Origin: an uncultured Chloroflexia bacterium
Lineage (GTDB): Bacteria > Chloroflexota > Chloroflexia > Thermomicrobiales > UBA6265
DNA: 64,000 nucleotides
Direction of reading: 5' to 3'
Assembly: GCA_963724295.1 (NCBI GenBank)
Contig: CAVRUC010000005.1
Location: forward strand, 202,492 to 266,491
Positions 1 through 15,499 of the stretch are shown here, piece by piece. The position numbers and the translations under genes are program-made. Below the pieces are notes generated by a model that was not told the DNA's origin, did not search any database, and saw only the letters and a program-made list of their open reading frames with translations. Numbering within the stretch: the stretch's first letter is position 1; the number at the start of each line of letters is the position of its first letter.

Positions 1-1241
<1,241 letters not shown>

Positions 1242-1430
1242 CGAAGTTGCATCGGCGGTGGGAGGAACCCTCCCGCTCTCCGCTCGGGCGGCCAGTGCGT
1301 CGGTCCCGTCCGACGCGCTGACGGCCGCCACACCGCGGAACGATCAGCGCATTGCCGCGAACAACTCAGGTGCAGTAGTCATATCTCGACCACCGGCACG
1401 CAACATGCAATATCTGCTGGGTGGTCCCCC

Positions 1431-1751
1431 GCGACGATGGGGAGGAGTAGGGCCGACAACCGCGCAAGCGACTCAGGGATGGTGGAAGCCTGGGACTCGC
1501 GGAATCGCCCCGAACGCGCCCCGGAGCGGCTGGCCGAAGAACGTCGCCTCTCGCGACAAGTAGGCTCAGGTGGGTGGTTCCCACGGAACGAACAACCGAG
1601 AGATGCGCGCCGCCGGGGATTCCCGGTCGCTCGCAAGAAGGGTGGTACCGCGGGAGCAGACGCCTCTCGCCCCTTCGGTCCGGATGCGGCGCACGTTGCG
1701 CCCGCCGGCGCCGGGCGTCCCGTCGACGTCAGGAACCGAAGGGGGTTCGTC
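1431..1751 (+). promoter_or_regulatory. T-box riboswitch leader (translational type, probable Arg specifier) controlling the OTC/LysW operon
   Basis: The core GGGUGGUACCGCG lies at 1640-1652 inside AAGAAGGGUGGUACCGCGGGAG. An antiterminator-like fold is present: helix 1637-1642/1671-1676, 7-nt bulge UGGUACC at 1643-1649, and helix 1650-1656/1664-1670. Stem I shows AG-bay AGCGA (1467-1471), distal loop GAUGGUGGAAG (1478-1488), and nested helices 1431-1436/1542-1547, 1451-1455/1531-1535, 1460-1464/1498-1502 and 1472-1477/1489-1494. CCCCUUCGGU (1670-1679) is perfectly complementary to ACCGAAGGGG (1735-1744), which covers the SD before ATG 1752. Confidence 0.8.
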
Positions 1752-2861
1752 ATGTTTGAAGCGTCCGCCGCGTCGGATCCGCGGCCAGTACCGCACCCGA
1801 CGCCCAGCTTGACCCGGGTAGAACCGCAATCCGACCCGTTCACCGAGGCGATCGCCCCGCGCGCGATTTCCCTCGGCGGCCCCGGCGCGGGCAATCTCTC
1901 CACCTTCACGATCAGCGCGCGCTTGCAAGGGCGGAGCGTCCTCACCGATACGGACCTGACCCGCGACGAAATCGTGGAGGTGATCGGGACCGCTGCCCGG
2001 TTGAAGAAGCTGCGCCAGGCAGGTCAGCCGCACGGATACCTGGCGGGCAAGTCGCTCGGCATGATCTTCCAGCACCCCAGCACCCGCACCCGGGTCGCGT
2101 TTGAAGCGGGTATGGCGCAGCTCGGGGGTCAGGCCATTTTCCTCGGCGTCCACGACTTGCAGATCAAGCGCGGCGAGAGTCTCGCCGACACGGCGCAGGT
2201 GTTGAGCCGCTACGTCGACGGCATCGTCGCTCGCGTCGCCGCGCACAGCGATATCGAGGAGATCGCCGCGGCCTCAGCGGTGCCCGTCCTCAACGGGCTC
2301 TCCGACCGGTGCCACCCGATGCAGGCGCTCAGCGACCTTTTGACGATGCAGGAGGTCTTCGGCGACCTCCCCGGGCGCAAGATCGCCTATCTCGGCGACG
2401 GCAATAACATGGTCCATTCGCTGCTGCTGACCTGCGCCGTGATGGGCATGAGCGTCACCGTGGCGTCGCCTGAAGGCTACCAGCCCGATCCTGAGGTCGT
2501 GAACCACGCGCGGTGGCTGGCCGCGGCCAGCGGCGCCGATCCCGAGATCGTCATCACTGATGATCCGATGGCAGCCGCCAGCGGCGCCGATGCCATCTAC
2601 ACCGACGTTCACGTCAGCATGGGTCAGACCGACGCCGCGACCCGAGCCGTAGCCCTGGCGCCGTACAAAGTGACCACCAGGATCATGACCGCGGCAAAGC
2701 CGGCGGCCGTCTTCATGCACTGCCTACCGATGCACCGGGACCAGGAGGTCGAAGCCGTCGTGGCCGACGGACCGCGCTCGATCATCTTCGATCAGGCCGA
2801 AAACCGGCTCCATCTGCAGAAGGCGGTGCTCCTGCACACCCTCTGTCCGACCGTGGCCTAG
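1752..2861 (+). CDS. argF: ornithine carbamoyltransferase-family protein, paralog 1 (about 65-aa Pro-rich N-terminal extension)
   Basis: Motifs present: FQHPSTRTR (carbamoyl-phosphate site), HPMQALSDLLT, DVHVSMG and HCLPMHRD. The start at ATG 1752 was chosen because SD GAAGGGGG (1739-1745) sits 6 nt upstream and is the target of the T-box sequestrator. The track ORF start at 1437 would run through the riboswitch. Confidence 0.85.
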   Translation: MFEASAASDPRPVPHPTPSLTRVEPQSDPFTEAIAPRAISLGGPGAGNLSTFTISARLQGRSVLTDTDLTRDEIVEVIGTAARLKKLRQAGQPHGYLAGKSLGMIFQHPSTRTRVAFEAGMAQLGGQAIFLGVHDLQIKRGESLADTAQVLSRYVDGIVARVAAHSDIEEIAAASAVPVLNGLSDRCHPMQALSDLLTMQEVFGDLPGRKIAYLGDGNNMVHSLLLTCAVMGMSVTVASPEGYQPDPEVVNHARWLAAASGADPEIVITDDPMAAASGADAIYTDVHVSMGQTDAATRAVALAPYKVTTRIMTAAKPAAVFMHCLPMHRDQEVEAVVADGPRSIIFDQAENRLHLQKAVLLHTLCPTVA

Positions 2862-2875
2862 GGAGCGATAAAGCG

Positions 2876-3892
2876 GTGCACATGGTCATCGACGGTTACA
2901 ACGCAACAGGGGCAGGTGGTCAGGTCTTTTCCTGGATCGACGACCCAGCCGCGCGCGTCGCGGCTCCCGGTTTGCACGGCCGCAGCGTTCTCTCCGACCT
3001 CGACTTATCGCGCGCCGACGTCGATGCCCTGGTCGAAACCGCGCTCTGGCTCAAGATCCAGCGGGAGCGAGCGCAACCGCACCCATACCTCGCCGGGAAA
3101 ACACTGGGCATGCTCTTTCAACATCCGAGCACCCGCACCCGCAATGCCTTCCAGGCCGGCATGGAGCAGCTTGGCGGACACGCGACCTTTCTCGGCGCGG
3201 ACGAGTTGCAGCTCACCCGCGGCGAGACCCTGCCCGACACCGCCAGGATTCTCAGCCGTTACGTCGACGGTATCGCCGCCCGTTTCTCCGCGCACGACGA
3301 TCTCATCGTCTTCATGGGCGGCGCCTCGATTCCGGTCTACAACGCGCTCACCGAACGCTTTCACCCCATCGAGGCGCTGAGCGATTTGTTGACCCTGCAC
3401 GATCAGTTCGGCGGCCTCAAGGGACTGAAGCTTGCCTACGTTGGGGATGGCAACAACGTTTGTCACTCGCTGATGCTCAGCGCCGCCGCCGCGGGTATGC
3501 ACGTCGCCGTTGCCTCTCCCGACGCCTTCGCACCCGATCACACGCTCGTCGAACGCGGGCGGGAGCTTGCGGCACAGGCCGGCGGGTCGGTCCTCGTCAC
3601 CGAAGACCCGGTACAGGCCGTCACCGGAGCCGACGCGGTCTACACCGACGTCCACGAGAGCATGGGTCAGCCGGACGATCCACAGAAGCGGCTGGTCCTG
3701 ACGCCATACAAGGTGACCGTGGCGCTGATGGCGGAGGCGCGCCCAACCGCTGTCTTCATGCACTGCCTGCCGATGCAACGGGACATGGAGGTGGAAGCGG
3801 CCGTAGCGGACGGTCCGCAATCGATCGTATTCGAGCAAGCCGCGAACCGGCTGCACATGCACAAGGCCGTGCTCCTGCTGACGATGGGGTAA
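2876..3892 (+). CDS. ornithine carbamoyltransferase-family protein, paralog 2 (HPxQ changed to HPIE)
   Basis: Motifs present: FQHPSTRTR, DVHESMG and HCLPMQRD. The HPxQ motif reads HPIEALSDLLT. The gene is tandem to paralog 1 with a 14-nt gap. The start is GTG 2876 or ATG 2881, after GGGAGCG. Confidence 0.85.
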   Translation: MHMVIDGYNATGAGGQVFSWIDDPAARVAAPGLHGRSVLSDLDLSRADVDALVETALWLKIQRERAQPHPYLAGKTLGMLFQHPSTRTRNAFQAGMEQLGGHATFLGADELQLTRGETLPDTARILSRYVDGIAARFSAHDDLIVFMGGASIPVYNALTERFHPIEALSDLLTLHDQFGGLKGLKLAYVGDGNNVCHSLMLSAAAAGMHVAVASPDAFAPDHTLVERGRELAAQAGGSVLVTEDPVQAVTGADAVYTDVHESMGQPDDPQKRLVLTPYKVTVALMAEARPTAVFMHCLPMQRDMEVEAAVADGPQSIVFEQAANRLHMHKAVLLLTMG

Positions 3893-3982: not shown

Positions 3983-4147
3983 ATGGACGTGACCTGTCCG
4001 GAATGTGGCGCCGAGTTGGCATTGAGCGGGGTCGAGCAGGGAGAGATCGTCACCTGTCCTGACTGTGGGGTCGATCTCGAAGTACTCACCTCCGAGCCGA
4101 TCACGGTCGGTCTCGCCCCCGAGGAAGGCGAGGACTGGGGCGAATAG
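3983..4147 (+). CDS. lysW: amino-group carrier protein LysW (54 aa, absent from the ORF track)
   Basis: Hand translation gives [54 protein letters not shown]. It has two CxxC pairs (zinc ribbon) and the diagnostic acidic C-terminus EDWGE. An AAGGAAGG SD lies upstream, and the gene sits inside a LysXZYJK cluster. Confidence 0.9.
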
Positions 4148-4175: not shown

Positions 4176-5108
4176 ATGACGGCAGAGAAGGGGTCCGCGA
4201 TGGCAACGGTAGGCGTGCTCTGTGCGCGCGGTCGAGTCGAAGAAAACGCACTCATGGCGGCGCTGGCGCAAGCTGGCATCGTCTCTGCGCTCTTCCCGCC
4301 CGCGGACGAACCACTGCCAGTCGGACCGACGTCGCATTCGCCGACCGGGCGTCCCTTCCCCGTGCCGCAGATCGTCGTCGATCGCCATCCAACCCGCCAG
4401 ATCGCCCGCGCGGTAATTGCGACGTGCGGTGCGCTCGGTGTACCGGTGCTCTGCGCCGGCATCGCCGCCACTGGCGACCGTCTGGACGTGGCATCTGCCT
4501 TGGCCGGCCACGATCTGCCACGTCCGCTGACGGCCCTGTGCACCTCGGAAGATGCCGGAATCGAGGCCGTTGCCGCGATGGGACTGCCGGCCACGCTGCT
4601 GCCGCTGGAGCTGAAGTCGGCGCCGATCGCCCTCCTCGACCGGGACGCCGCCGAGGCGGTCCTCGAACACCGCGCCGTGCTTGGCGGCGTCGAAGGTTCC
4701 CTGGGGCTCATCCAGGCCGGGTCTCCGAGCACCGAACATCTCGTGAACGTGATCGTCGTCGACGGAGCGGCCACCGCCGTCGAGACCAGGACCGGCACCG
4801 CTGTTCCGGATCAGGCCATGCGCCTCGCCGAGTACGCCGCCGGCGCGCTGAACGCGGACCTCGTGGCCATCGTTATCGCCTTGCGCTCCGGCGGCCCGGT
4901 GATCTGGGACGCCCGCCCGGTCCCGGATTTTCGCGACGCGATGCCGATCGGGAATCTCACCGTTGCGCAATCGATCGCCCAGGCAGTCGAGCGCAGACTG
5001 CTGACCACGGCCTCGGGTCTGCCGGGAGAGCGAGACCGGACGTGGACCGGTATCTCCTCCAGCACCCAAGGACAAGGACTGCGACGTGATCTCGTCATCA
5101 GTGCCTGA
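4176..5108 (+). CDS. LysX/RimK-like ATP-grasp paralog with degenerate active site (probable pseudoenzyme)
   Basis: It aligns along its length with the two downstream LysX proteins (for example VGVLCARGRVEENALMAALAQAG against [23 protein letters not shown]). However, KPxxGSWGRLL is replaced by LELKSAPIALL, QE(Y/F)V by QAGS, and the D...EVN metal site by AIVIAL...WDARP. The start is ATG 4176 or 4200. The 3' end overlaps lysK by 23 nt. Confidence 0.7.
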   Translation: MTAEKGSAMATVGVLCARGRVEENALMAALAQAGIVSALFPPADEPLPVGPTSHSPTGRPFPVPQIVVDRHPTRQIARAVIATCGALGVPVLCAGIAATGDRLDVASALAGHDLPRPLTALCTSEDAGIEAVAAMGLPATLLPLELKSAPIALLDRDAAEAVLEHRAVLGGVEGSLGLIQAGSPSTEHLVNVIVVDGAATAVETRTGTAVPDQAMRLAEYAAGALNADLVAIVIALRSGGPVIWDARPVPDFRDAMPIGNLTVAQSIAQAVERRLLTTASGLPGERDRTWTGISSSTQGQGLRRDLVISA

Positions 5109-6189
5109 CATCGCACCGGCAGCCGCGTCCGGGACCGTGGCGCCGGGAGATTACGACGTCGACCTGCTGCGGCGTATGGTCGAGATCCCAAGTCTGTCCG
5201 ACGAGGAGCATGCGGCAGTGGCGGAGCTCTGCCGTCAGATGGAGGCGCGCGGCTTTCGCGCCGAGATCGACGCCGCTGGCAACGCGATAGGAGTGATTGG
5301 CTCCGGAGAGCGCCATATCGTGCTCCTCGGGCATATCGACACGGTCCCCGGTCAGATCCCGGTCCGCATCGAGAACGGCGAGTTGTGGGGCCGCGGCGCG
5401 GTCGACGCCAAGGGACCGCTCTGCACGTTCGTCGCCGCGGCCGCCGCGGCCGCGCCGGACCTCAGCGCCACGGTCACGGTCGTCGGTGCGGTCGGGGAGG
5501 AGCGTCTCGGTTCTCCCGGCGCTAATGCCGTCGCCGCCTGGGATGCCCCGGACTACTGCGTCATCGGCGAGCCAAGCGGCTGGGACGCCGTCTGCCTCGG
5601 CTACCGCGGCACACTCGGGTTCCACTACCGGCTGCGCCAACCATCACGCCACAGCGCCGGACCCGGCGAATCAGCCGGCGAGCAAGCGATCGCGTTCTGG
5701 AACGCCTTGGTGGCCGAGCTCGATGCCATGAACACCGCAAGTGGTGCCACCACCGGGTTTACGACTATCGCTCCCGCCCTGCGCGAGATGCGCTCCGGCG
5801 GGAACGGGTTGGAAGACGAAGCCGTCATGTCGATTGGTCTTCGCCTCCCACCCGGAGTCGATACGGACCGGCTCCACGGACGCCTGCGGGAGCTCGCCGC
5901 TCCGGCGGTCATTGAGGTCGACGGAGTGCAGCCGGGCTTTCGCTCGCCGAAGCAGACGCCGCTGGTGCCGCCGTTCCTGCGCGCGATTCGTGCCGCGGGC
6001 GGTTCGCCCCGCTTCACCCTGAAGCTGGGAACCTCTGACATGACTGTCGTCGGCCCGGTCTGGAACTGCCCCATGGTCACCTACGGCCCGGGAGATGCGT
6101 CACTCGACCACACGCCTCACGAGCGGATCGATCTCGAGCACTACGGTCTTGCCATCCGCGTCCTGCGTGATGTCCTGGTGTCGCTATGA
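5086..6189 (+). CDS. lysK: [LysW]-lysine/ornithine hydrolase, M20 peptidase family (ArgE/LysK)
   Basis: Motifs LLGHIDTVPG and GRGAVDAKGP are M20/ArgE-DapE signatures. GTG start. The stop overlaps the next start (ATGA). Confidence 0.85.
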   Translation: MISSSVPDIAPAAASGTVAPGDYDVDLLRRMVEIPSLSDEEHAAVAELCRQMEARGFRAEIDAAGNAIGVIGSGERHIVLLGHIDTVPGQIPVRIENGELWGRGAVDAKGPLCTFVAAAAAAAPDLSATVTVVGAVGEERLGSPGANAVAAWDAPDYCVIGEPSGWDAVCLGYRGTLGFHYRLRQPSRHSAGPGESAGEQAIAFWNALVAELDAMNTASGATTGFTTIAPALREMRSGGNGLEDEAVMSIGLRLPPGVDTDRLHGRLRELAAPAVIEVDGVQPGFRSPKQTPLVPPFLRAIRAAGGSPRFTLKLGTSDMTVVGPVWNCPMVTYGPGDASLDHTPHERIDLEHYGLAIRVLRDVLVSL

Positions 6190-7100
6190 CCGCACCCGGT
6201 CTCAACGGTCACTCCCGCCTCGCTGCATCCCGTCCCGACCGGCTCGGGGTGCTCGTCTCCTACCTCCGCCCCGAGGAGAAGTCGATCCTGGCCGCGGCCC
6301 GCGATCGCGGCATCGAAGTCGCGCCGATTTTCGATCGCGATCTCGTGCTCGATCTGTCGTCGCCACACGCTCCGGGCAGTGGGCTCGATTTCGACGTCGT
6401 CCTCGACCGCTGCGTCGCCCACTCGCGCTCCGGTTACACCTTGCGCGCGCTGCGACGCTGGGGCGTCCCGACCCTGAATACCGCCGAGGCGGTCCGGCTC
6501 TGCGACGACAAGGCCGAGAACAGCCTGGTTCTGGAGGCGGCTGGCATCCCTACTCCACGCACGCTGATCGCCTTCGACGTCGCATCCGCGCTGCGGGCCT
6601 GCGAAACCCTCGGCTATCCCGCCGTGCTCAAACCGGTCACCGGCTCCTGGGGCCGCCTCCTGGCCCGCGTCAATGGACCCGATCAGGCGCGGACGGTGCT
6701 GGAGCAGAAGAAAGAGCTTGGCTCCTTCCATCACGCGATCTTTTATGTCCAGGAATACGTCGAAAAACCGGACCGGGACATCCGCGCCTACGTCGTCGGT
6801 GACCGCGTGCTGGCTGCGTCATACCGCACCGCGAAGCACTGGGTCACGAACGCCGCCCGTGGCGCCGAGTCCGTGCCCTGTCCGATCACCCCCGATATCG
6901 AGGAGCTTGCCCTCCGCGCCTGCGCCGCTGTCGGCGCCCGCCTGGCCGGTGTCGATCTGATCGAGACTGGTGAAGGTCTGGAGGTCATCGAGGTCAATAC
7001 CGGCGGCGAGTTCAAAGGACTCATGTCCACCACCGACGTCGACATCGCCGGCGCAATCGTCGACGAGGCCATGCGCACGGCGCGTCTGGGAGTCGCATGA
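6186..7100 (+). CDS. LysX/ArgX-family ATP-grasp ligase (carrier-protein-amino-acid ligase), divergent copy
   Basis: Intact motifs: [49 protein letters not shown] and VDLIE...[13 protein letters not shown] overlaps occur at both ends. Confidence 0.85.
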
Positions 7101-8014
7101 ACGCTCCCCTGATCGTCGGCGTCCTTCTCTCTCGTGTGCGCGTCGAGGAAAAGCTGCTTCTCGCCGAGCTGGAGCGGCGCGGTGTCGAGATCGTTCGCTT
7201 CGACGACCGCGAGTTCTGGCTCGACCTCGGCGCCCCCGACCTTTCGATGCTGCGCTGCGATGTCGTGCTGGAGCGCTGCATCAACCACCTGCGCGCCCTC
7301 TATACCTTACGCGTCCTGAACGATTGGGACGTACCGACCGTCAACAGCTACGAGGTGGCCAACATCTGCGGCGACAAGCTTCTCACCTCGACCGCATTGG
7401 AACGGGCCGGCATTCCCACGCCGCGGACGCTGATCGCCTTCACGCCCGAATCGGCATTGGCGGCGTGCGAGGAGATCGGTTACCCGGTGGTCATGAAACC
7501 CGCAGTTGGCTCCTGGGGCCGGCTGCTGGCCCGGGTCAACGACCGGGACGCGGCGGAAGCCCTGCTGGAGCATAAGGTCACGCTCGGCTCATTTCACCAC
7601 GGCGCCTTCTACATTCAGGAGTTCGTGCGCAAACCGGGCCGCGACATCCGCACTTTCGTCGTCGGCGACGAAACGATCTGTGCGATCTACCGCGATTCTC
7701 CGCACTGGATCACGAACACCGCCCGCGGCGCCTCGGCCAGCAACTGCCCGGTGAGCGACGAGCTGCATGCACTCTCCCAGGCAGCCGCGGCTGCTGTCGG
7801 CGGCGGCGTGGTGGCCATCGATCTCTTCGAGAGCGACCGCGGTCTGCTGGTCAATGAGGTCAACTACACCATGGAGTTCCGCAACAGCATCGACACTACC
7901 GGGGTCGATATCCCGGCCCGCATCGTTGACTACGTTATCGCGGTCGGTCAGGCGGAACGAGATCGCCGCGACGTGTTAATGGCTCCCGCCGTCGCCGCGG
8001 CTGCCGGCGATTGA
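7097..8014 (+). CDS. lysX: LysX-type ATP-grasp ligase (closest, by recollection, to Thermus LysX)
   Basis: Motifs present: [44 protein letters not shown] and [22 protein letters not shown]. Confidence 0.85.
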
Positions 8015-8772
8015 TGAGTGTCATGTCGGAGCAGATTGAAACCCGGCTGGATTACGACAGACGCGCGACCGAGTTTGCCCTCCATCGCAAGATCCATCCT
8101 GAAGTCCTTCGCGAGCTCCTCGGCAGCGGTTTGTTCGGTCCGGAAACGCGTGTCCTGGACGTCGGTTGCGGTACAGGAAACTACGCCGCCGCACTGACCG
8201 CGGAAACGAGTTGCCGAATCTCCGGCGTCGATCCCTCAGAGAGGATGCTCGACTGGGCCCGCGACGCCGCGTCATGGGAATCCCTGACAAAGTCTGACGC
8301 GGAGCATCTGCCGTTCGGCGCCGGAGCGTTCGACGTCGTCATGTCGACCGACGTCATTCACCACATTCGGGATCGTGACGGCTACTTCCGTGAGGCGGCC
8401 AGGGTGCTGCGAGCCGGGGGTCATCTCGTGACCGTCACTGATTCGCACGACACCATTCCGCGGCGGCGTCCCCTCTCCAGCCACTTTCCGGAAACGGTCG
8501 GAGTCGAGCTGCAGCGCTATCCGCCGGTACCACGGTTGCTGGAGGAGATGGGTCGCGCCGGGTTCGTCGAGCCTCGCATTGTCGAGGTCTCGCGCGACTA
8601 CGAGCTCGACGATATCCAGGCCTACCGGGACCGGGCATTCTCCTCGCTCCTCCTGATCGAGGAGGAGGCGTTTCGCCGCGGGATAAGCCGTCTGGAAGCG
8701 GACCTGGCACGGGGACCCATCCCGTGCGTCTCTCTCTACACGATGATTTGGGGACAATTACCCTGCTCGTAA
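8014..8772 (+). CDS. class I SAM-dependent methyltransferase embedded in the LysW cluster
   Basis: It carries motif I VLDVGCGTGNYA and an acidic post-I region. The start ATG 8014 overlaps the lysX stop (TGATG); TTG 8011 is an alternative. The stop TAA 8770-8772 overlaps ATG 8772. Confidence 0.8.
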   Translation: MSVMSEQIETRLDYDRRATEFALHRKIHPEVLRELLGSGLFGPETRVLDVGCGTGNYAAALTAETSCRISGVDPSERMLDWARDAASWESLTKSDAEHLPFGAGAFDVVMSTDVIHHIRDRDGYFREAARVLRAGGHLVTVTDSHDTIPRRRPLSSHFPETVGVELQRYPPVPRLLEEMGRAGFVEPRIVEVSRDYELDDIQAYRDRAFSSLLLIEEEAFRRGISRLEADLARGPIPCVSLYTMIWGQLPCS

Positions 8773-8807: not shown

Positions 8808-9851
8808 ATGAACGTTTCGATTATTGGCGGCAGCGGATACGCGGGCGGGGAGCTGGTTCGCCTCCTGCTCGATCATCCCGAGGTCACGATCCAGCAGGTG
8901 ACATCCGAGCGCAACGCCGGCAAATTCGTCCGTTCGGTTCATCCCAACTTGCGCAAGCGATCCGACCTCAAGTTCTCGGCACTGGCCGACTTGCAACCGG
9001 CTGACGTCATCTTCAGCGCATTGCCGCACGGCGTCGCCATGGGTCAGATGGCCGAGCTGCGTCAGAAGGCGCCGATCGTCATTGACCTCAGCGCCGACTT
9101 CCGGCTGCGCGATGCCGCCGACTACCCGAAGTGGTACGGCCATGAACACCAGGACCCGGAGCTGCTGGAATCGTTCGTCTACGGCATACCGGAGCTCCAT
9201 CGCGAGGAGCTGCGCGACGCCGATCTGATCTCCAGCGCCGGCTGCATGGCCGCGACCAGCATCCTCGGTCTCTATCCCCTCTTCCAGGCGAAGGTCGTTG
9301 ATCTCTCCCGCCCGGTCGTGGTCGAGGCCAAGACCGGATCGTCCGGGTCGGGCGGCGCACCCGGACTCGGGTCGCATCATCCCGAACGGAGCGGCGCGAT
9401 GCGCTCCTTCAAGCCGACCGGTCACCGCCACTCGGCCGAGATCATCCAGGAGCTGACTGTCGACGGCCAGGGACCAGAGGTCGCCTTCTCCGCCACCGCG
9501 ATCGAGGCGGTGCGTGGCATTCTGGCCACCTCCCACGTCTTCCTCGAGGAGCCCTTGCCCGAGAAGGAGATCTGGTCCATCTACCGGGCGGCGTACAAGG
9601 ACGAGCCATTCATGCGGCTGGTCAAGGAGGCCTCCGGTGTCCATCGCTACCCGGAACCGAAGCTCCTTTCCGGCTCCAACTGGTGTGACGTCGGTTTCGA
9701 GCGTGATCCCAATTCCAACCGCATCGTGGTCATGGCCGCGCTCGACAACCTGATGAAAGGCGCTGCAGGCCAGGCGGTGCAGGCCCTCAACATCCGCTGC
9801 GGATTCCCGGAGACGACCGCCCTCGAGTTCGCGGGGCTCCATCCGATTTAG
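8808..9851 (+). CDS. lysY: N-acetyl-gamma-glutamyl-phosphate reductase homolog, LysY/ArgC type
   Basis: Motifs present: MNVSIIGGSGYAGGELVRLL (NAD-binding N-terminus) and SSAGCMATS (catalytic Cys). GGAGG lies at 8790-8794. The alternative start ATG 8772 is coupled to the methyltransferase stop. Confidence 0.85.
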   Translation: MNVSIIGGSGYAGGELVRLLLDHPEVTIQQVTSERNAGKFVRSVHPNLRKRSDLKFSALADLQPADVIFSALPHGVAMGQMAELRQKAPIVIDLSADFRLRDAADYPKWYGHEHQDPELLESFVYGIPELHREELRDADLISSAGCMAATSILGLYPLFQAKVVDLSRPVVVEAKTGSSGSGGAPGLGSHHPERSGAMRSFKPTGHRHSAEIIQELTVDGQGPEVAFSATAIEAVRGILATSHVFLEEPLPEKEIWSIYRAAYKDEPFMRLVKEASGVHRYPEPKLLSGSNWCDVGFERDPNSNRIVVMAALDNLMKGAAGQAVQALNIRCGFPETTALEFAGLHPI

Positions 9852-10081: not shown

Positions 10082-10921
10082 ATGCTGGTAATCAAGATCG
10101 GCGGCGGCGCGGCCATCGGCGAGGGCGGCTACAGCAACTTTGCCGAGGACCTGGCTACCATCGCCGAGCCGGTCGTGGTCGTCCACGGCGGCAATGCCGA
10201 GTTCAGCGCGCTGAGCCGTCAGCTCGGCATGCCACCGCGCATGATCACGTCGTCCAGCGGGCGCGTCACTCGCTACACCGACGCCGCGACGATGGACGCC
10301 ATGCTGATGGCCTACTGCGGCAAGGTCAACAAGCGGCTCGTCGCTACGTTGCGCAGCGCCGGCGTCAACGCCGTTGGCCTGAGCGCCATCGACGGGGGCA
10401 TCGCCGTCGGCAGACGGAAACCGGTCCTGCGCGGCGCCGAGGATGGCAAGAGCAAAGTGCTTCGGGACGACCACGCGGGAACCCTGGAGTTCGTGGATCC
10501 CTCGCTGGTGGGGCTCTTGCTGCAGAACGGCTACACCCCCGTGCTCACCCCGCCCGCGCTGGGCGAAGCAGGCGTGCCGATCAACGTCGACGGCGACAAG
10601 CTCGCCCTCGAGCTGGCCACCGCGCTGCAGGCGGAGGGCCTGCTCTTCTTCTCCGACACCCCGGGTCTGCTACGTGACCGGCACGACGAAACCTCGCTAA
10701 TCGCCGAAATCGATGCCTCGTCGCCCGAATCGGCACTGGCAGCGGCGGCGGGCCGCATGGTGGTCAAGGTCGAAGCCGCGCTCGGCGCCGTGGAACGCGG
10801 CGTTGGTCGCGTCGTCTTCGCCGATGGTCGCATTGCCAACCCAATCCGGGCGGCGCTAAACGGGCAGGGAACGACCGTCCGACACGCGATGCCCGCGGCA
10901 GCTGAAAAAAGTGATCGGTAA
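10082..10921 (+). CDS. lysZ: amino-acid kinase, LysZ/ArgB type
   Basis: Motifs present: MLVIKIGGGA and VVVHGGN, with an overall acetylglutamate-kinase-like fold. The gene lies within the cluster. Confidence 0.85.
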   Translation: MLVIKIGGGAAIGEGGYSNFAEDLATIAEPVVVVHGGNAEFSALSRQLGMPPRMITSSSGRVTRYTDAATMDAMLMAYCGKVNKRLVATLRSAGVNAVGLSAIDGGIAVGRRKPVLRGAEDGKSKVLRDDHAGTLEFVDPSLVGLLLQNGYTPVLTPPALGEAGVPINVDGDKLALELATALQAEGLLFFSDTPGLLRDRHDETSLIAEIDASSPESALAAAAGRMVVKVEAALGAVERGVGRVVFADGRIANPIRAALNGQGTTVRHAMPAAAEKSDR

Positions 10922-11043: not shown

Positions 11044-12225
11044 ATGACGACCGTCGGAACGCTCGACCTGGCTCAAATCCAACACCTCGAAAATGATCAC
11101 CAGCCACCGCTCTACGCCAAACGGGAGATCGCCCTCGTCCGCGGCGAGGGCGCCTATCTCTTCGACACCGAGGGGCGCCGGTATCTCGACGCCATGAGCA
11201 ACTACGGCGTGGCGATCCTCGGCCACGCCGACCGGGAATACGCCGCGGCTCTCAGCGAGCAATTGCAGACCCTGGCCACCGGCCACCAGAGCTTTTACAG
11301 CGACGTCCGGGCCGAGCTGCTCGCCGAAATCGCGCAGATCGCACCGGCCGGTTTGACGCGCTACTTCCTCTCCAACTCGGGCGCGGAGGCCGTGGAGGCT
11401 GCGATCAAGTTCGCCCGCGTCGCCACCGGACGACCGAATCTCGTCGCGGCCAAGCGCGGCTATCACGGACGGACCCTGGGCGCTCTGGCCGCGACCGCCG
11501 ACCAGAAGTACCGCGCGCCGTTCGAGCCGCTGGCGCCGCACACAACGCATGTCACGTTCAACGACGTCGACGCGCTCGCGGCCGCCGTCGACGACCAGAC
11601 CGCGGCCATCCTGCTCGAGCCGATCCAGGGCGAAGGTGGCATCTGGCCCGCATCCTCGGAATATCTCCAGTCCGCCCGGGAGATCGCCACCGCCCAAGGA
11701 GCGCTCCTCATCGCCGACGAGATCCAGACCGGCTTCCGCACCGGCGCTCCCTGGGCGATGAGCGTGTCCGAGGTTGTTCCCGACGTGCTGGTCACGGCGA
11801 AAGCGCTAGCCAACGGATTCCCGATCGGTCTGACGATGTTTACCGAAGCGATCTCGGAGGCGATCCCGAGCGGCGCCCATGGCACAACGTTTGGCGCCAG
11901 CCCGCTGGCTTGTCGCGCCGCAATCGTTACCCTGCGCGCGCTGCGTGAGCGGGACCTCTATGCGCGGTCGGCGGCGCTCGGCGCGGAGATCATGGAACGT
12001 CTTACCGGCCTCGGTAGTCCGAAAGTGCGCCAGGTGCGCGGCCGCGGCATGATGATCGGGGTCGAGCTCAAGGAGCGTGTTACCCCGACTCTCCGGGCTC
12101 TGCAACAGCGCGGCGTGCTGGTCCTTCCCGCGGGACCCACCACCTTCCGCCTCCTACCCCCGCTCATCTGGGAGCAGGAGCAGGTCGACGAGTTGATCGA
12201 GGCGGTTGAATCAACGCTGAACTGA
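11044..12225 (+). CDS. lysJ: class III PLP aminotransferase, LysJ/ArgD type
   Basis: It has typical acetylornithine aminotransferase features: SNSGAEAVEAAIKFAR, LIADEIQTGFRTG, and the PLP-lysine region TAKALANGFP. Confidence 0.85.
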   Translation: MTTVGTLDLAQIQHLENDHQPPLYAKREIALVRGEGAYLFDTEGRRYLDAMSNYGVAILGHADREYAAALSEQLQTLATGHQSFYSDVRAELLAEIAQIAPAGLTRYFLSNSGAEAVEAAIKFARVATGRPNLVAAKRGYHGRTLGALAATADQKYRAPFEPLAPHTTHVTFNDVDALAAAVDDQTAAILLEPIQGEGGIWPASSEYLQSAREIATAQGALLIADEIQTGFRTGAPWAMSVSEVVPDVLVTAKALANGFPIGLTMFTEAISEAIPSGAHGTTFGASPLACRAAIVTLRALRERDLYARSAALGAEIMERLTGLGSPKVRQVRGRGMMIGVELKERVTPTLRALQQRGVLVLPAGPTTFRLLPPLIWEQEQVDELIEAVESTLN

Positions 12226-12286: not shown

Positions 12287-13687
12287 TCAGCCCGCATTGC
12301 CGGCGCCGCTATCCAATTTCGGTTCGGTCTGCCGGTGCGGATGCAGCGCCTCGTCAACCTGCTCGCGGGTCAATCCCGACTCTTCGTAGGCGAGCTCGCG
12401 CACCGTACGACCAGTCGCGTGCGATTTCTTGGCGATTTTGGCCGCATTGTCGTAACCGATAAGCGGGTTGAGCGCGGTAGCCATGCTGATTGACCCCTCG
12501 ATGTAGCTCTCCGCCTGCTCCCGGTTCGCCTCGAGACCAGCCAGCGCCTTGTCGACGAAGACCCGTGAGACGTTCGCCAGGAGCCGCACGCTCTCCAACA
12601 TATTCCTGGCCATCATCGGCAGCATCACATTGAGGTCGAGCTGGCCCCACTGGCCACCGATGGTGATCGCCTGGCAGTTGCCCGTGACTTGCGCTCCAAC
12701 CTGGATGACGACCTCGCTGATTACGGGATTGACCTTGCCCGGCATGATCGAGCTTCCCGGTTGGATGGCCGGTAGCACCAGCTCGCCCAGCCCAGCCTGC
12801 GGTCCGGAGGCCAGCAGACGAATATCGTTGGCGATCTTCATCAGCGTCGCGGCGAGCGCGGTCAGCGCCCCGGCTGTGAAGACATAGGCATCGCGAGCCC
12901 CTTGCGCCTCGAAATGGTTCTCCGCCTCCCGAAAATGCGTGCCGGTGAGGTCAGAGAGTTCCCGCGCCACACGAGCACCGAAATCGGGATGCGTGTTCAA
13001 CCCGGTGCCGACCGCGGTGCCGCCAATAGCCAGCTCGCGCAGCCCGGGCAGCGTTGCCTCGATGCGCTGGATGGTCAGCTCGATCTGTCGCGCGTAGCCG
13101 CTGAACTCCTGACCCAGCCGGATCGGCACCGCGTCCATCAGGTGGGTGCGGCCGATCTTCACGACGTCGTCGAACGCTTTGGCCTTGCGACCGAGGATGT
13201 CGTGCAGATACTGGAGCGCCGGGATCAGGTCGTTCTCGATCGCGAGCACCGCCGAGACATGCAATACGGTTGGGATGACGTCGTTCGATGACTGTCCGAG
13301 GTTCACCTCATCGTTCGGGTGGACCCTTCGTCCCAATTCGACTGAAGCGACCGCGGCGATCACCTCGTTGGCGTTCATGTTCGACGACGTCCCTGAACCC
13401 GTCTGAAAGACGTCGATTGGGAACTCTTCGTCCAGCTCACCGTCGGCCACGGCGCGCGCGGCATGCTCGATGGCATCGGCCACGTCCGGCGGCAACAGGC
13501 TGAGTTCGCGATTCACTCGGGCCGCGGCCAACTTCACCAGACCCAGCGCCCGGATGAACTCAGCGGGCATCGGTTGACCGGAGATCGGGAAATTCTCAAC
13601 CGCTCGCTGCGTCTGCGCGCCATAGCGGGCCGCGGCGGGCAGGACCACCTCGCCCATCGTATCTCGTTCAACTCGCGTCTCGGTCAT
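12287..13687 (-). CDS. fumC: class II fumarate hydratase
   Basis: Motifs present: GSSIMPGKVNP signature and QTGSGTSSNMNANEVIA. The length is 466 aa. Confidence 0.9.
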   Translation of the reverse strand: MTETRVERDTMGEVVLPAAARYGAQTQRAVENFPISGQPMPAEFIRALGLVKLAAARVNRELSLLPPDVADAIEHAARAVADGELDEEFPIDVFQTGSGTSSNMNANEVIAAVASVELGRRVHPNDEVNLGQSSNDVIPTVLHVSAVLAIENDLIPALQYLHDILGRKAKAFDDVVKIGRTHLMDAVPIRLGQEFSGYARQIELTIQRIEATLPGLRELAIGGTAVGTGLNTHPDFGARVARELSDLTGTHFREAENHFEAQGARDAYVFTAGALTALAATLMKIANDIRLLASGPQAGLGELVLPAIQPGSSIMPGKVNPVISEVVIQVGAQVTGNCQAITIGGQWGQLDLNVMLPMMARNMLESVRLLANVSRVFVDKALAGLEANREQAESYIEGSISMATALNPLIGYDNAAKIAKKSHATGRTVRELAYEESGLTREQVDEALHPHRQTEPKLDSGAGNAG

Positions 13688-13704
13688 TCGATCGAATCTC
13701 CGCG

Positions 13705-13751
13705 TTCCCCCTCTCCTCAGCGCACTGGGAGCGGGGGTCAGGGGGTGAGGG
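13705..13751. repeat. hairpin repeat TTCCCCCTCTCC..AGCGCACTGGGAG.GGGG..AGGGGTGAGGG, copy 1
   Basis: It is about 90% identical by eye to 28725-28768. An internal stem pairs CCCCCTCTCC with GGAGCGGGGG. It lies between the proS stop and the fumC start. Confidence 0.7.
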
Positions 13752-13759
13752 AACCGGTC

Positions 13760-15499
13760 TCAGTCCGCGGGCTCATTACCCGCAAGTCCCGCATACAACT
13801 CGTCCAGCATCCCGCGCACGGTCGACACTACTTCAGCGAGCGGAACGAAGACGGCTTCGTCCGCCGACCGCAGCTTGATCTCCGCCTCTCCCTTGCCCAG
13901 CGTCCGCGTGCTGACCGAGACACGGACGGGATTGCCAATCAGATCGGCGTCGTTGAACTTGACCCCCGCGCGCTCCGATCTGTCATCGTAGAGCACTTCG
14001 ATGCCGGCCCGCGTCAGCTCGTCGTAGAGCCGGTCAGCCGCATCCTGCGGCTCGGTGTCGTCAGCGCCGCCGATCCACAACAGCGACACTTCGTACGGAG
14101 CGACCGTCACCGGCCAGACGATCCCGCGGTCGTCGTGATGCTGCTCGACCACGGTCGCCGAAACGCGCCCCGAACCGATGCCATACGATCCCATGTAGAT
14201 CGGGTGGCTGATCCCTTCGGCGTCGAGATACTCGGCCCCCAGCGCCTTGGAGTAGCGCGTGCCGAGCTTGAAGATATTTCCGACCTCGATGGCGCGTTCC
14301 GCGGTTAGCGCGGCACCGCACGTCGAGCAGGGGAACCCCGCCTCAGCCGACGCGATGTCGGCCACGACATCCGGCGTGTAGTCGCGCCCGGGGTTGGTGT
14401 TGAGCATGTGCCAGCCGACCCGGTTGGCTCCCGCCACCAGATTCGGCGTATCGCGCACACTCTCGTCGATGACGATCAACGCATCGCGAACCCCGACAGG
14501 TGATCCGTACCCCGGCTCCGCTCCTATGGCCCGGATCTCCTCGACTGTGGCCGGTGTGAGGCCGGTCTCACCGGCGGCCTTGCGCAGCTTCGTCTCGTTG
14601 ACGTCGAGATCGCCCCGGATCACGGCGAAGACGAACCGGCCGGAATCCCCCTTGTAGAACACCGCCTTCGCCGTCTTGGCGAGTGGTATGTTCAAGAAAT
14701 CCGCCAGCGCCTGGATCGTGGTCGTACTCGGCGTCTCGATCTCCTCCATTGGCAGGGGAGCTTCCCCGGTTGGGGCATCGCGTTGGAACGTGGCCACCTC
14801 ACGGTTATCCGCGTAGCCGCACTCCGGGCAGATGAGCACGATATCTTCGCCATAGGACGAGAGGGCCATGAACTCGTGAGAAGCACTGCCGCCCATCATG
14901 CCGGTGTCCGCACCGACGACGACGAAGTCGAGCCCCACCCGGCGGAAGATCCGCTCGTAGGCCCGCCAGTGGTTCTGGTACTGCGCATCCAGCCCTTCCT
15001 CGTCCCGGTCGAGGGTGTAGGAGTCCTTCATCGTGAACTCGCGGACCCGGATCAATCCGCCCCGCGAGCGAGGCTCATCACGCCACTTGGTCTGGATGTG
15101 ATAGACGACCATCGGCAGCTGGCGGTAGGAGCTGACTTCCTGCCGCGCCAGATCAGTGACGATCTCCTCGTGGGTCATGGCCAGAACCATGTCGCGGTCG
15201 CCGCGGTCCTTAAAGCGGGTCAATTCCGGCCCGACGACGTCGTACCGACCCGATTCCCGCCAGATGTCGGCCGGATGGACGACCGGCATCAGCATCTCTT
15301 GCCCGCCGATGGCGTTCATTTCCTCGCGAATGATCTGCTCGACCTTGCGCACAACTCGCCAGCCCAATGGCAGCAGGCTGTAAATGCCCGCGCCCAAAGG
15401 CCGCATCAATGCGGCGCGCAGCATCAGTCGGTGACTGGGCAGCTCGACATCGCCCGGCGCTTCGCGCAGCGTCCGGCCGAACAGGTGTGACATCCGCAT
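13760..15499 (-). CDS. proS: prolyl-tRNA synthetase (bacterial type with editing insertion)
   Basis: The N-terminus reads MRMSHLFGRTLREAP...LMLRAALMRPLGAGIYSLLPLG. Class II aaRS motifs are present and the length is 579 aa. Confidence 0.9.
   Translation of the reverse strand: MRMSHLFGRTLREAPGDVELPSHRLMLRAALMRPLGAGIYSLLPLGWRVVRKVEQIIREEMNAIGGQEMLMPVVHPADIWRESGRYDVVGPELTRFKDRGDRDMVLAMTHEEIVTDLARQEVSSYRQLPMVVYHIQTKWRDEPRSRGGLIRVREFTMKDSYTLDRDEEGLDAQYQNHWRAYERIFRRVGLDFVVVGADTGMMGGSASHEFMALSSYGEDIVLICPECGYADNREVATFQRDAPTGEAPLPMEEIETPSTTTIQALADFLNIPLAKTAKAVFYKGDSGRFVFAVIRGDLDVNETKLRKAAGETGLTPATVEEIRAIGAEPGYGSPVGVRDALIVIDESVRDTPNLVAGANRVGWHMLNTNPGRDYTPDVVADIASAEAGFPCSTCGAALTAERAIEVGNIFKLGTRYSKALGAEYLDAEGISHPIYMGSYGIGSGRVSATVVEQHHDDRGIVWPVTVAPYEVSLLWIGGADDTEPQDAADRLYDELTRAGIEVLYDDRSERAGVKFNDADLIGNPVRVSVSTRTLGKGEAEIKLRSADEAVFVPLAEVVSTVRGMLDELYAGLAGNEPAD

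Follow-up and report, generated by a model that had tools for sequence, protein, structure and literature searches.

Tandem ornithine carbamoyltransferase genes at the head of a LysW operon with a putative arginine T-box leader in Thermomicrobiales

The 64,000-nucleotide stretch of DNA analysed here (contig CAVRUC010000005.1 of an uncultured Chloroflexia bacterium; the whole stretch is referred to as the window) carries two adjoining genes for ornithine carbamoyltransferase (OTC) directly upstream of a gene for the amino-group carrier protein LysW. The window comes from a genome of high GC content, about 65%, and its closest database relatives are labelled Thermomicrobiales, Chloroflexota. The plus strand holds, in order, argG, a 510-nt spacer, OTC copy 1, OTC copy 2, lysW, a degenerate LysX-like gene that we call grasp0, lysK, two LysX/ArgX-type ligase genes, a methyltransferase gene, lysY/argC, lysZ and lysJ. 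A BLASTP alignment of the two OTCs covers 307 amino acids (aa) at 58% identity (E 3e-131), and their genes are separated by 14 nt, in agreement with the initial annotation, which had described tandem OTC paralogs. It had also placed them in a LysW context, and lysW indeed lies 91 nt 3' of copy 2. We regard the pair as a genuine and conserved variant, not described before, of a well-known enzyme. Its genes and their immediate surroundings are as follows.

1425..1745, plus strand: putative T-box leader with an Arg (CGC) specifier and a predicted helix sequestering the ribosome-binding site (RBS); Rfam RF00230 match at 1425-1677, alignment and minimum-energy fold
1752..2861, plus strand: OTC copy 1, 369 aa, with HPMQ, FQHPSTRTR, DVHVSMG and HCLPM; motifs, hidden Markov models (HMMs), alignment and AlphaFold2 model
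2876..3892, plus strand: OTC copy 2, 338 aa, with HPIE, FQHPSTRTR, DVHESMG and HCLPM; motifs, HMMs, alignment and AlphaFold2 model
3983..4147, plus strand: LysW amino-group carrier protein, 54 aa, with two CxxC pairs and the C-terminus EDWGE; TIGR01206, 68.4 bits (cut-off 53.2)

The active-site motifs of the two proteins differ at one position of special interest. In copy 1, STRTR occupies residues 110-114, HPMQ 188-191, DVHVSMG 285-291 and HCLP 323-326, and the equivalents in copy 2 are STRTR at 85-89, HPIE at 163-166, DVHESMG at 258-264 and HCLP at 296-299. The translations therefore bear out the statement that both proteins keep STRTR, DxxxSMG and HCLP. The SxRTR phosphate-binding motif reads STRTR in both copies and is invariant in the clade of each. 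The DxxxSMG ornithine-binding loop is likewise present in both, with His as its third residue where Trp is usual. The carbamoyl-binding motif HPxQ is found in copy 1 (HPMQ) and is broken in copy 2 (HPIE). Neither copy has the Lys that stands two residues before STRT in the pattern FxKxSxRT, both reading FQHPSTRTR instead.

Family models place both copies among the OTCs. Against the profiles TIGR00658 and NF001986 (cut-offs 280.85 and 306 bits), copy 1 scores 372 and 390 bits and copy 2 scores 346 and 351 bits. Models of aspartate carbamoyltransferase (ATCase), whose mark is an RxQxER loop, give 130-156 bits against cut-offs of 237-263, so that the earlier assignment of both proteins as ornithine-type rather than aspartate-type holds. 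The model for N-acetyl- and N-succinylornithine transcarbamylases (NF003384) scores the two copies at 155 and 157 bits with a cut-off of 288, and the YgeW models give 48-66 bits with cut-offs of 453-500. Putrescine carbamoyltransferases are marked by a 230-loop of the form (Y/W)(G/W)(V/L/I)x in place of SMG, a C-terminal helix of about 20 aa and a Gln before STRT. With their model, TIGR04384, the two copies reach 284 and 259 bits where the cut-off is 500, and both keep SMG, lack a C-terminal extension and have His rather than Gln before STRT. In diaminopropionate and diaminobutyrate carbamoyltransferases DxxxSMG is replaced by (T/S)RWQ(T/S)(T/M)G and accompanied by HDLP (PMC4581275); this signature is absent from the window proteins, both of which keep Asp231 and HCLP.

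The structural comparison leads to the same family. The best solved relatives are the anabolic OTCs of Bacillus anthracis and Pyrococcus furiosus (E ~1e-87). The AlphaFold2 models of the two copies have predicted local distance difference test (pLDDT) values of 84 and 88, and in Foldseek both superpose on P. furiosus OTC (1a1s) with a target TM-score of 0.93-0.94 and a root-mean-square deviation of 1.9 Å, the N-terminal extensions remaining unmatched. The top Foldseek matches of both models are all OTCs, and both have the unknotted two-domain transcarbamylase fold.

Residue conservation was assessed in an alignment of 108 copy 1-type, 121 copy 2-type and 76 ordinary OTCs, using the numbering of Escherichia coli ArgI. 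At or near 100% in both clades are S55, T56, R57, T58, R59, Q82, R106, H133, N167, D231, S235, M236, H272, C273, L274 and R319. Against this background four positions stand out, given below with the residue and its frequency.

K53: copy 1 clade His 1.00, copy 2 clade His 1.00, ordinary OTCs Lys 0.97
W233: copy 1 clade His 0.99, copy 2 clade His 1.00, ordinary OTCs Trp 0.92
A276: copy 1 clade Met 1.00, copy 2 clade Met 0.95, ordinary OTCs Ala 0.97
Q136: copy 1 clade Gln 1.00, copy 2 clade Glu 1.00, ordinary OTCs Gln 0.99

The changes K53H, W233H and A276M lie on the ornithine side of the active site, and they set the whole subfamily apart from ordinary OTCs. Lys53 has been called constant in OTCs, where it is said to pair through water with the α-carboxylate of ornithine (PMC3282769, PMC4581275). 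The nearest ordinary OTC, P0242, is 55% identical, has canonical motifs and does not lie beside lysW. The two copy clades differ from each other at 22 positions that are fixed in each, 12 of them within the first ~110 residues, a stretch made up of helix 1, helix 2 and the 80s loop. We looked for an overall charge pattern that might mark LysW docking and found none: with net charges of -9 to -12 the copies are as acidic as ordinary OTCs and match them in isoelectric point, LysW itself being at -14, although charge is weak evidence on this question. HDLP replaces HCLP in P0241, P0414 and P0462 and, among 90 copy 1-type relatives belonging to single-copy lineages, in 37; the Asp at this position is otherwise noted for diaminopropionate and diaminobutyrate carbamoyltransferases, but DVHVSMG and HPxQ are kept.

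The change from HPxQ to HPIE in copy 2, already pointed out in the initial annotation, proves to be fixed in every copy 2 orthologue examined. HPxE occurs in all 118 scorable close homologues of copy 2 and, down to ~57% identity, in the copy 2 gene product of each of the seven related genome loci, and the frequency of Glu at Q136 is 1.00 in the alignment of the 121-member clade. Among 139 scorable representatives of diverse OTCs clustered at 50% identity, by comparison, 136 have Gln and 2 have Glu, and one of the two is a fragment belonging to the copy 2 clade. HPxE can thus be rejected as a common variant of bona fide OTCs, which would have spoken against a specialised role for the pair as first proposed. 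The other Glu case is an unrelated OTC-like protein in a non-arginine context, P0370 (L085, 1961-2875), with HPVE, FERPSLRTR (again without Lys53) and DTWISMG. Its gene adjoins a hydrolase gene, and with it Glu is seen here for a second time, independently of copy 2.

Further changes are fixed in copy 2, namely V234E (giving DVHESMG), E63Q, C60N, E317A and R246K, so that two Glu residues are gained at the active site and two conserved ones are lost nearby. To judge from the alignment, this looks like coordinated remodelling and not decay. The position of the copy 2 Glu corresponds to Q171 of human OTC, where Q171A lowers kcat/Km 32- to 79-fold and weakens the binding of carbamoyl phosphate, and where, in yeast complementation, every substitution except Q171E is a null (PMC11256359). 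Human Q171E is a laboratory variant of a mammalian enzyme, whereas the Glu of copy 2 is the natural, fixed state of a clade and comes with companion substitutions. It is plausible that the copy 2 Glu still serves as a hydrogen-bond acceptor for the carbamoyl NH2 group. In the open-access literature we found nothing on a LysW-linked or HPxE OTC.

The evolutionary history of the pair was followed in distance-based (neighbour-joining) trees with 100 bootstraps, in which support is 100 for the family, 99 for the copy 1-type clade and 99-100 for the copy 2 clade. With the family and both copy clades well supported, the trees point to a single, old duplication within a subfamily found only in Thermomicrobiales. 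Compared with the nearest loci (L001 and L002), the ratio of nonsynonymous to synonymous substitution rates (dN/dS) is 0.04-0.07 for copy 1 and ~0.07 for copy 2, values that are approximate as dS is near saturation. By this sequence measure both copies are under strong purifying selection. Given the dN/dS of ~0.07 and the invariant catalytic residues, we reject the idea that copy 2 is a pseudogene in decay or a duplicate under relaxed selection. Divergence within the clades is equal (0.29 vs 0.27), the two copies diverge in parallel with mirrored tree topologies, and the distance to ordinary OTCs is 1.04 for copy 2 and 0.96 for copy 1.

The link to lysW is a property of the subfamily. We surveyed 80 loci from species-representative genomes, 7 of the subfamily and 73 with ordinary OTCs. 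All 7 subfamily loci have two OTC genes, and lysW lies alongside in 6 of them, the contig of the seventh (L006) ending inside copy 2. Each of the 73 ordinary loci has a single OTC gene, and lysW was not found within 10 kb of any of them. Wherever a subfamily locus has its downstream flank on the contig (16 of 16), the OTC gene or genes stand directly 5' of lysW. The two-copy order OTC1-OTC2-lysW-grasp0-lysK-lysX-lysX-lysY-lysZ-lysJ is seen in the window, L001-L007, L086, L090 and L093, and an otherwise identical operon with a copy 1-type gene alone is seen in L082/L083, L088, L089, L091 and L092. These single-copy lineages form a group nested in the copy 1 clade next to two-copy lineages, a topology that suggests one loss of copy 2 as the simplest history. 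Because the one-OTC operons nest inside the copy 1 clade, copy 1 can suffice alone and copy 2 is a dispensable accessory.

Both copies carry N-terminal extensions, as first reported. For copy 2 the length of ~32 aa is close to the ~33 aa noted originally, and for copy 1 the earlier figure of ~65 aa has to be reduced to ~57 aa; the canonical L.GR..L segment starts at residue 58 in copy 1 and at residue 33 in copy 2. The start of copy 1 at ATG 1752 has a ribosome-binding site, GAAGGGGG, 6 nt upstream, and it agrees with the T-box architecture and with an existing 369-aa gene call. Extension lengths and motifs are kept among the orthologues of both copies, and the two extensions are unlike each other. 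The last 20 residues of the copy 1 extension follow the pattern LGG-x6-L-x2-FT(I/V)S-x-RL, which is conserved across the subfamily including representative single-copy proteins (of 90 relatives of the single-copy lineage, 63 fit a strict form of it) and is predicted with moderate confidence in the AlphaFold2 model to form a β-hairpin. The copy 2 extension has the motif SWIDD..AR.AAP, with a helix at residues 24-33 confidently predicted in its model, and is poorly conserved in more distant orthologues.

A longer open reading frame at 1437-2861 (474 aa) was rejected as the true copy 1, as its first 105 codons are T-box leader and both the RBS and the 369-aa calls favour 1752. Many database entries of the copy 1 type have 447-474 aa (P0125, P0133, P0140, P0241, P0414 and others); here gene callers have translated the GC-rich leader. 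The "conserved peptide" of these overlong entries (…GMVEAW…ERAPERLAEE…QVGSGGW…KKGGTAG…), corresponding to 1437-1751 of the window, is RNA conservation read as protein.

The leader upstream of copy 1 matches Rfam RF00230 at 1425-1677 over the full model (1-219) with 50.6 bits and an E-value of 2e-9, below the gathering score of 93. In seven loci, comprising the window and six related loci with the upstream region available, the AGUA/GAA turn, the distal GGUGGAA, the T-box sequence AGGGUGGUACCGCG and the specifier GAA-CGC-(G/A) are invariant. CGC is an arginine codon. In the minimum-energy fold, CCCCUUCGG (1670-1678) pairs with the segment CCGAAGGGG, which contains the RBS at 1738-1745. In our own reading of the sequence, CCCUUC could instead pair with GAAGGG at 1637-1642 in an antiterminator-like helix. 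The predicted expression platform is a helix that sequesters the RBS and not a terminator, and the leader is a putative translational riboswitch for uncharged tRNA-Arg. Because the layout is that of a translational T-box with an Arg specifier, the whole operon, including both OTCs and lysW, would be induced by arginine starvation, and this control assigns the operon to arginine synthesis. An Arg-specific translational T-box may thus be a useful marker for assigning LysW clusters to arginine rather than lysine.

The remaining genes of the locus supply a LysW pathway, bracketed by argG upstream.

288..1241, plus strand: argG (argininosuccinate synthase), 3' part, the 5' end lying upstream of the listed open reading frame start; NCBIfam NF001770, 460 bits (cut-off 334)
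4176..5108, plus strand: grasp0, degenerate LysX-like ATP-grasp homologue; LysX_arch only 43 bits (cut-off 275.6), motif loss in the alignment
5086..6189, plus strand: LysK, [LysW]-lysine/ornithine hydrolase; NF003367, 408.5 bits (cut-off 363)
6186-7100 and 7097-8014, plus strand: two tandem LysX/ArgX-type ATP-grasp ligases; TIGR02144, 305 and 334 bits (cut-off 275.6), best solved structures 3vpd and 1uc8
8011..8772, plus strand: S-adenosylmethionine-dependent methyltransferase-like gene, a variable insert; profile search
8811-9851, plus strand: LysY/ArgC; ArgC TIGR01850, 390 bits, tblastn synteny and Pfam labels in related loci
10082-10921, plus strand: LysZ/ArgB-type kinase; tblastn synteny and Pfam labels in related loci
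11044-12225, plus strand: LysJ/ArgD-type aminotransferase; tblastn synteny and Pfam labels in related loci

Wherever a related locus continues beyond lysW on its contig, the next gene is grasp0. Aligned with its two neighbours, the grasp0 product is seen to be missing their KP..GSWGR loop, HW.TN.ARG segment and ExN metal ligands, and with them the motifs that bind nucleotide and Mg. Among solved structures its best match is 5i47 (E 1.9e-13), which is uncharacterised. From these motif losses, grasp0 is probably a catalytically dead ATP-grasp protein that retains the N-terminal LysX domain. The tandem LysX/ArgX-type ligases are 52% identical, have overlapping stop and start codons and belong to an operon whose only control is the Arg T-box. 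Since LysK passes its equivalog cut-off, free ornithine should be available in the cell. No further arginine or lysine pathway genes were found elsewhere within the window.

Building on the gene structure, motifs, conservation, selection, phylogeny, operon context and T-box described above, we infer the substrates of the two enzymes, the catalytic competence of copy 2 and a possible complex between the copies. The best explanation, to which we give about an even chance, is that both are active OTCs working on free ornithine released by LysK, copy 1 as the housekeeping enzyme and copy 2 as an accessory isozyme or partner in mixed oligomers. Under arginine shortage, uncharged tRNA-Arg at the T-box would expose the RBS, and the operon would be translated from its OTC head. 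The same operon would also supply LysW and the enzymes that turn glutamate into ornithine on this carrier. LysK would then free L-ornithine from LysW, and both OTCs would convert it with carbamoyl phosphate to citrulline. Copy 1, with its HPxQ motif and hairpin extension, would be the housekeeping OTC. Copy 2 appears from its residues still to be equipped for catalysis, with a carbamoyl pocket remodelled by the change of Gln136 to Glu, and may be a kinetically or regulatorily distinct isozyme that possibly forms mixed oligomers with copy 1.

Several points weigh against this explanation. Both copies lack Lys53, which serves the ornithine α-carboxylate, and the SMG-loop Trp233, and because both are missing an altered hold on the amino-acid end of the substrate is plausible. 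The long fixation of Glu in copy 2 suggests selection for something beyond the reach of Gln, rather than tolerance. The explanation also gives no role to the conserved N-terminal hairpin of copy 1. In addition, the search for a third, ordinary OTC reached the 64-kb window only, where there is none.

A new function for copy 2 is possible, though rather unlikely. It could use another amine acceptor (lysine or another diamino acid) or another acyl or carbamoyl donor, or it could be an isozyme insensitive to a natural OTC inhibitor that resembles the transition state. The phaseolotoxin-resistant OTC of Pseudomonas is a model for the last idea. Such a role would fit the invariant and rare Q136E with its fixed charge changes V234E (in the SMG loop), E63Q and E317A, as well as the slightly greater distance of copy 2 from ordinary OTCs and its lower HMM scores. 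Copy 2 is also dispensable in some lineages, as an accessory function would be, and the tandem LysX paralogs in the operon hint at a parallel series of substrates. However, D231, N167, SMG, C273 and L274 all fit the binding of ornithine, the operon is under an Arg-only T-box, and toxin or secondary-metabolite genes were not seen nearby in the window.

That copy 2 is a purely regulatory or structural, non-catalytic subunit, tuning copy 1 in mixed or stacked trimers, is unlikely. The altered Gln contacts carbamoyl phosphate, the copies diverge in parallel with mirrored topologies, and the 12 of 22 clade-distinguishing positions in the first ~110 residues fall in the trimer-contact region. The short spacing of the genes also fits, being 14 nt in the window and, by estimates from tblastn coordinates, 8 nt in L002 and 18 nt in L001, but the gap widens to ~100-250 nt in L003 and L005. 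A subunit blind to its ligands should drift, whereas all other phosphate-, carbamoyl- and ornithine-binding residues of copy 2 are invariant and its dN/dS is low. Human OTC Q171E is functional (PMC11256359), and copy 1 stands alone in a whole subclade. That subclade lost copy 2 and kept LysW, LysK and the rest of the operon, which weakens both an obligate heteromer and an indispensable LysW-specific step by copy 2.

Carbamoylation on the carrier itself is improbable. In this case the subfamily, through the copy 1-type enzyme or one of the two copies, would carbamoylate ornithine while it is amide-linked to the C-terminal Glu of LysW, and LysK would hydrolyse the resulting LysW-citrulline. The genomic association speaks for this route, OTC standing directly 5' of lysW in 16 of 16 scorable subfamily loci and lysW near none of the 73 ordinary OTC genes, but it amounts to one phylogenetic event in one order and not to independent replication. 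The better lead for this idea lies in features that the initial annotation overlooked, namely the hairpin extension of copy 1 and the shared changes K53H and W233H, which sit where the pocket takes up the amino-acid part of ornithine. Asp231, which binds the free α-ammonium group, is nevertheless invariant, and apart from W233H the SMG loop has normal length and sequence. The conserved hairpin extension of copy 1 is without counterpart in any solved OTC, and the degenerate LysX-like protein encoded beside lysW could dock LysW. On the other hand, the copies have neither the knotted fold nor the proline-rich loop of the acyl-ornithine enzymes, their net charge (-9 to -12) is no less negative than that of ordinary OTCs while LysW is at -14, and copy 2 has even gained two Glu close to the site, opposite which the strongly acidic tail of LysW would come to lie. 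LysK is present and scores above its equivalog cut-off, and archaea that use LysW have ordinary OTCs, that of P. furiosus reading FQKPSTRTR, DVWASMG and HCLPA. A fuller version, in which the subfamily with His53, His233, Met276 and the hairpin uses LysW-ornithine, LysK frees citrulline, grasp0 docks the carrier and copy 2 takes the other, free form of the substrate, is quite improbable.

Comparison with known systems shows where the pair departs from precedent. In fold the copies resemble the unknotted anabolic OTCs (ArgF/ArgI; P. furiosus 1A1S/1PVV, B. anthracis 4NF2), to which they are 44-50% identical, and they have in common with them STRTR, R106, H133, N167, DxxxSMG, HCLP, R319 and a location in an arginine operon. 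They differ from them in His53, His233 and Met276, copy 2 also in Glu136 and Glu234, and in carrying N-terminal extensions that the solved OTCs lack; unlike ordinary OTCs, they form a tandem pair directly 5' of lysW. The N-acetylornithine and N-succinylornithine transcarbamylases (AOTCase/SOTCase, ArgF'), also found in arginine clusters, are the precedent for carbamoylating ornithine with a blocked α-amino group that is later deblocked. Their fold is knotted and has a proline-rich loop and a lengthened 120s loop but no DxxxSMG (PMC4581275), whereas the copies have DxxxSMG and the unknotted OTC fold. With the LysW pathway of Sulfolobus, Thermococcus and Thermus the window shares lysW, LysX/ArgX-type ligases, LysZ, LysY, LysJ and LysK, above cut-offs where tested. 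In the LysW systems described so far LysK releases ornithine and an ordinary, unlinked OTC then acts. The window differs from these in that two OTCs head the operon, three LysX-like genes are present (one of them degenerate) and a putative Arg T-box governs expression.

All transcarbamylases are said to be defined by three motifs, HPxQ among them, and here HPxQ is broken by a clade under strong purifying selection. The supposedly constant Lys53 of OTCs is replaced across the whole subfamily, all members of which are labelled plain "ornithine carbamoyltransferase" in databases. If copy 2 is active, a carboxylate can stand in for the amide in the carbamoyl pocket, and the enzyme would be a natural test case for how the pocket polarises carbamoyl phosphate. 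If LysW-bound ornithine were used after all, amino acid synthesis on a carrier protein would be one step longer, and this would be a third independent solution to the carbamoylation of protected ornithine, after acetyl and succinyl.

The surroundings of the operon vary between lineages. The argG gene lies 5' of the T-box-controlled unit and is not part of it; it is found upstream in L001, L005, L007, L091 and L093 and not in L086, L088, L089 and L090. Between the second LysX gene and lysY stands the methyltransferase-like gene, with a stop-start overlap; it is present in L002 and absent in L003, L086 and L088. In other lineages the operon has a luciferase-like or HAD gene at another place. Downstream of lysJ, on the minus strand (12287-15499), the window has a fumarase- or aspartase-like lyase (Lyase_1 and FumaraseC_C) and prolyl-tRNA synthetase. 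The Lyase_1 gene (12287-13687) was considered as argH and rejected in view of this fumarase- or aspartase-like character. The prolyl-tRNA synthetase neighbour is found again in L088 and L089.

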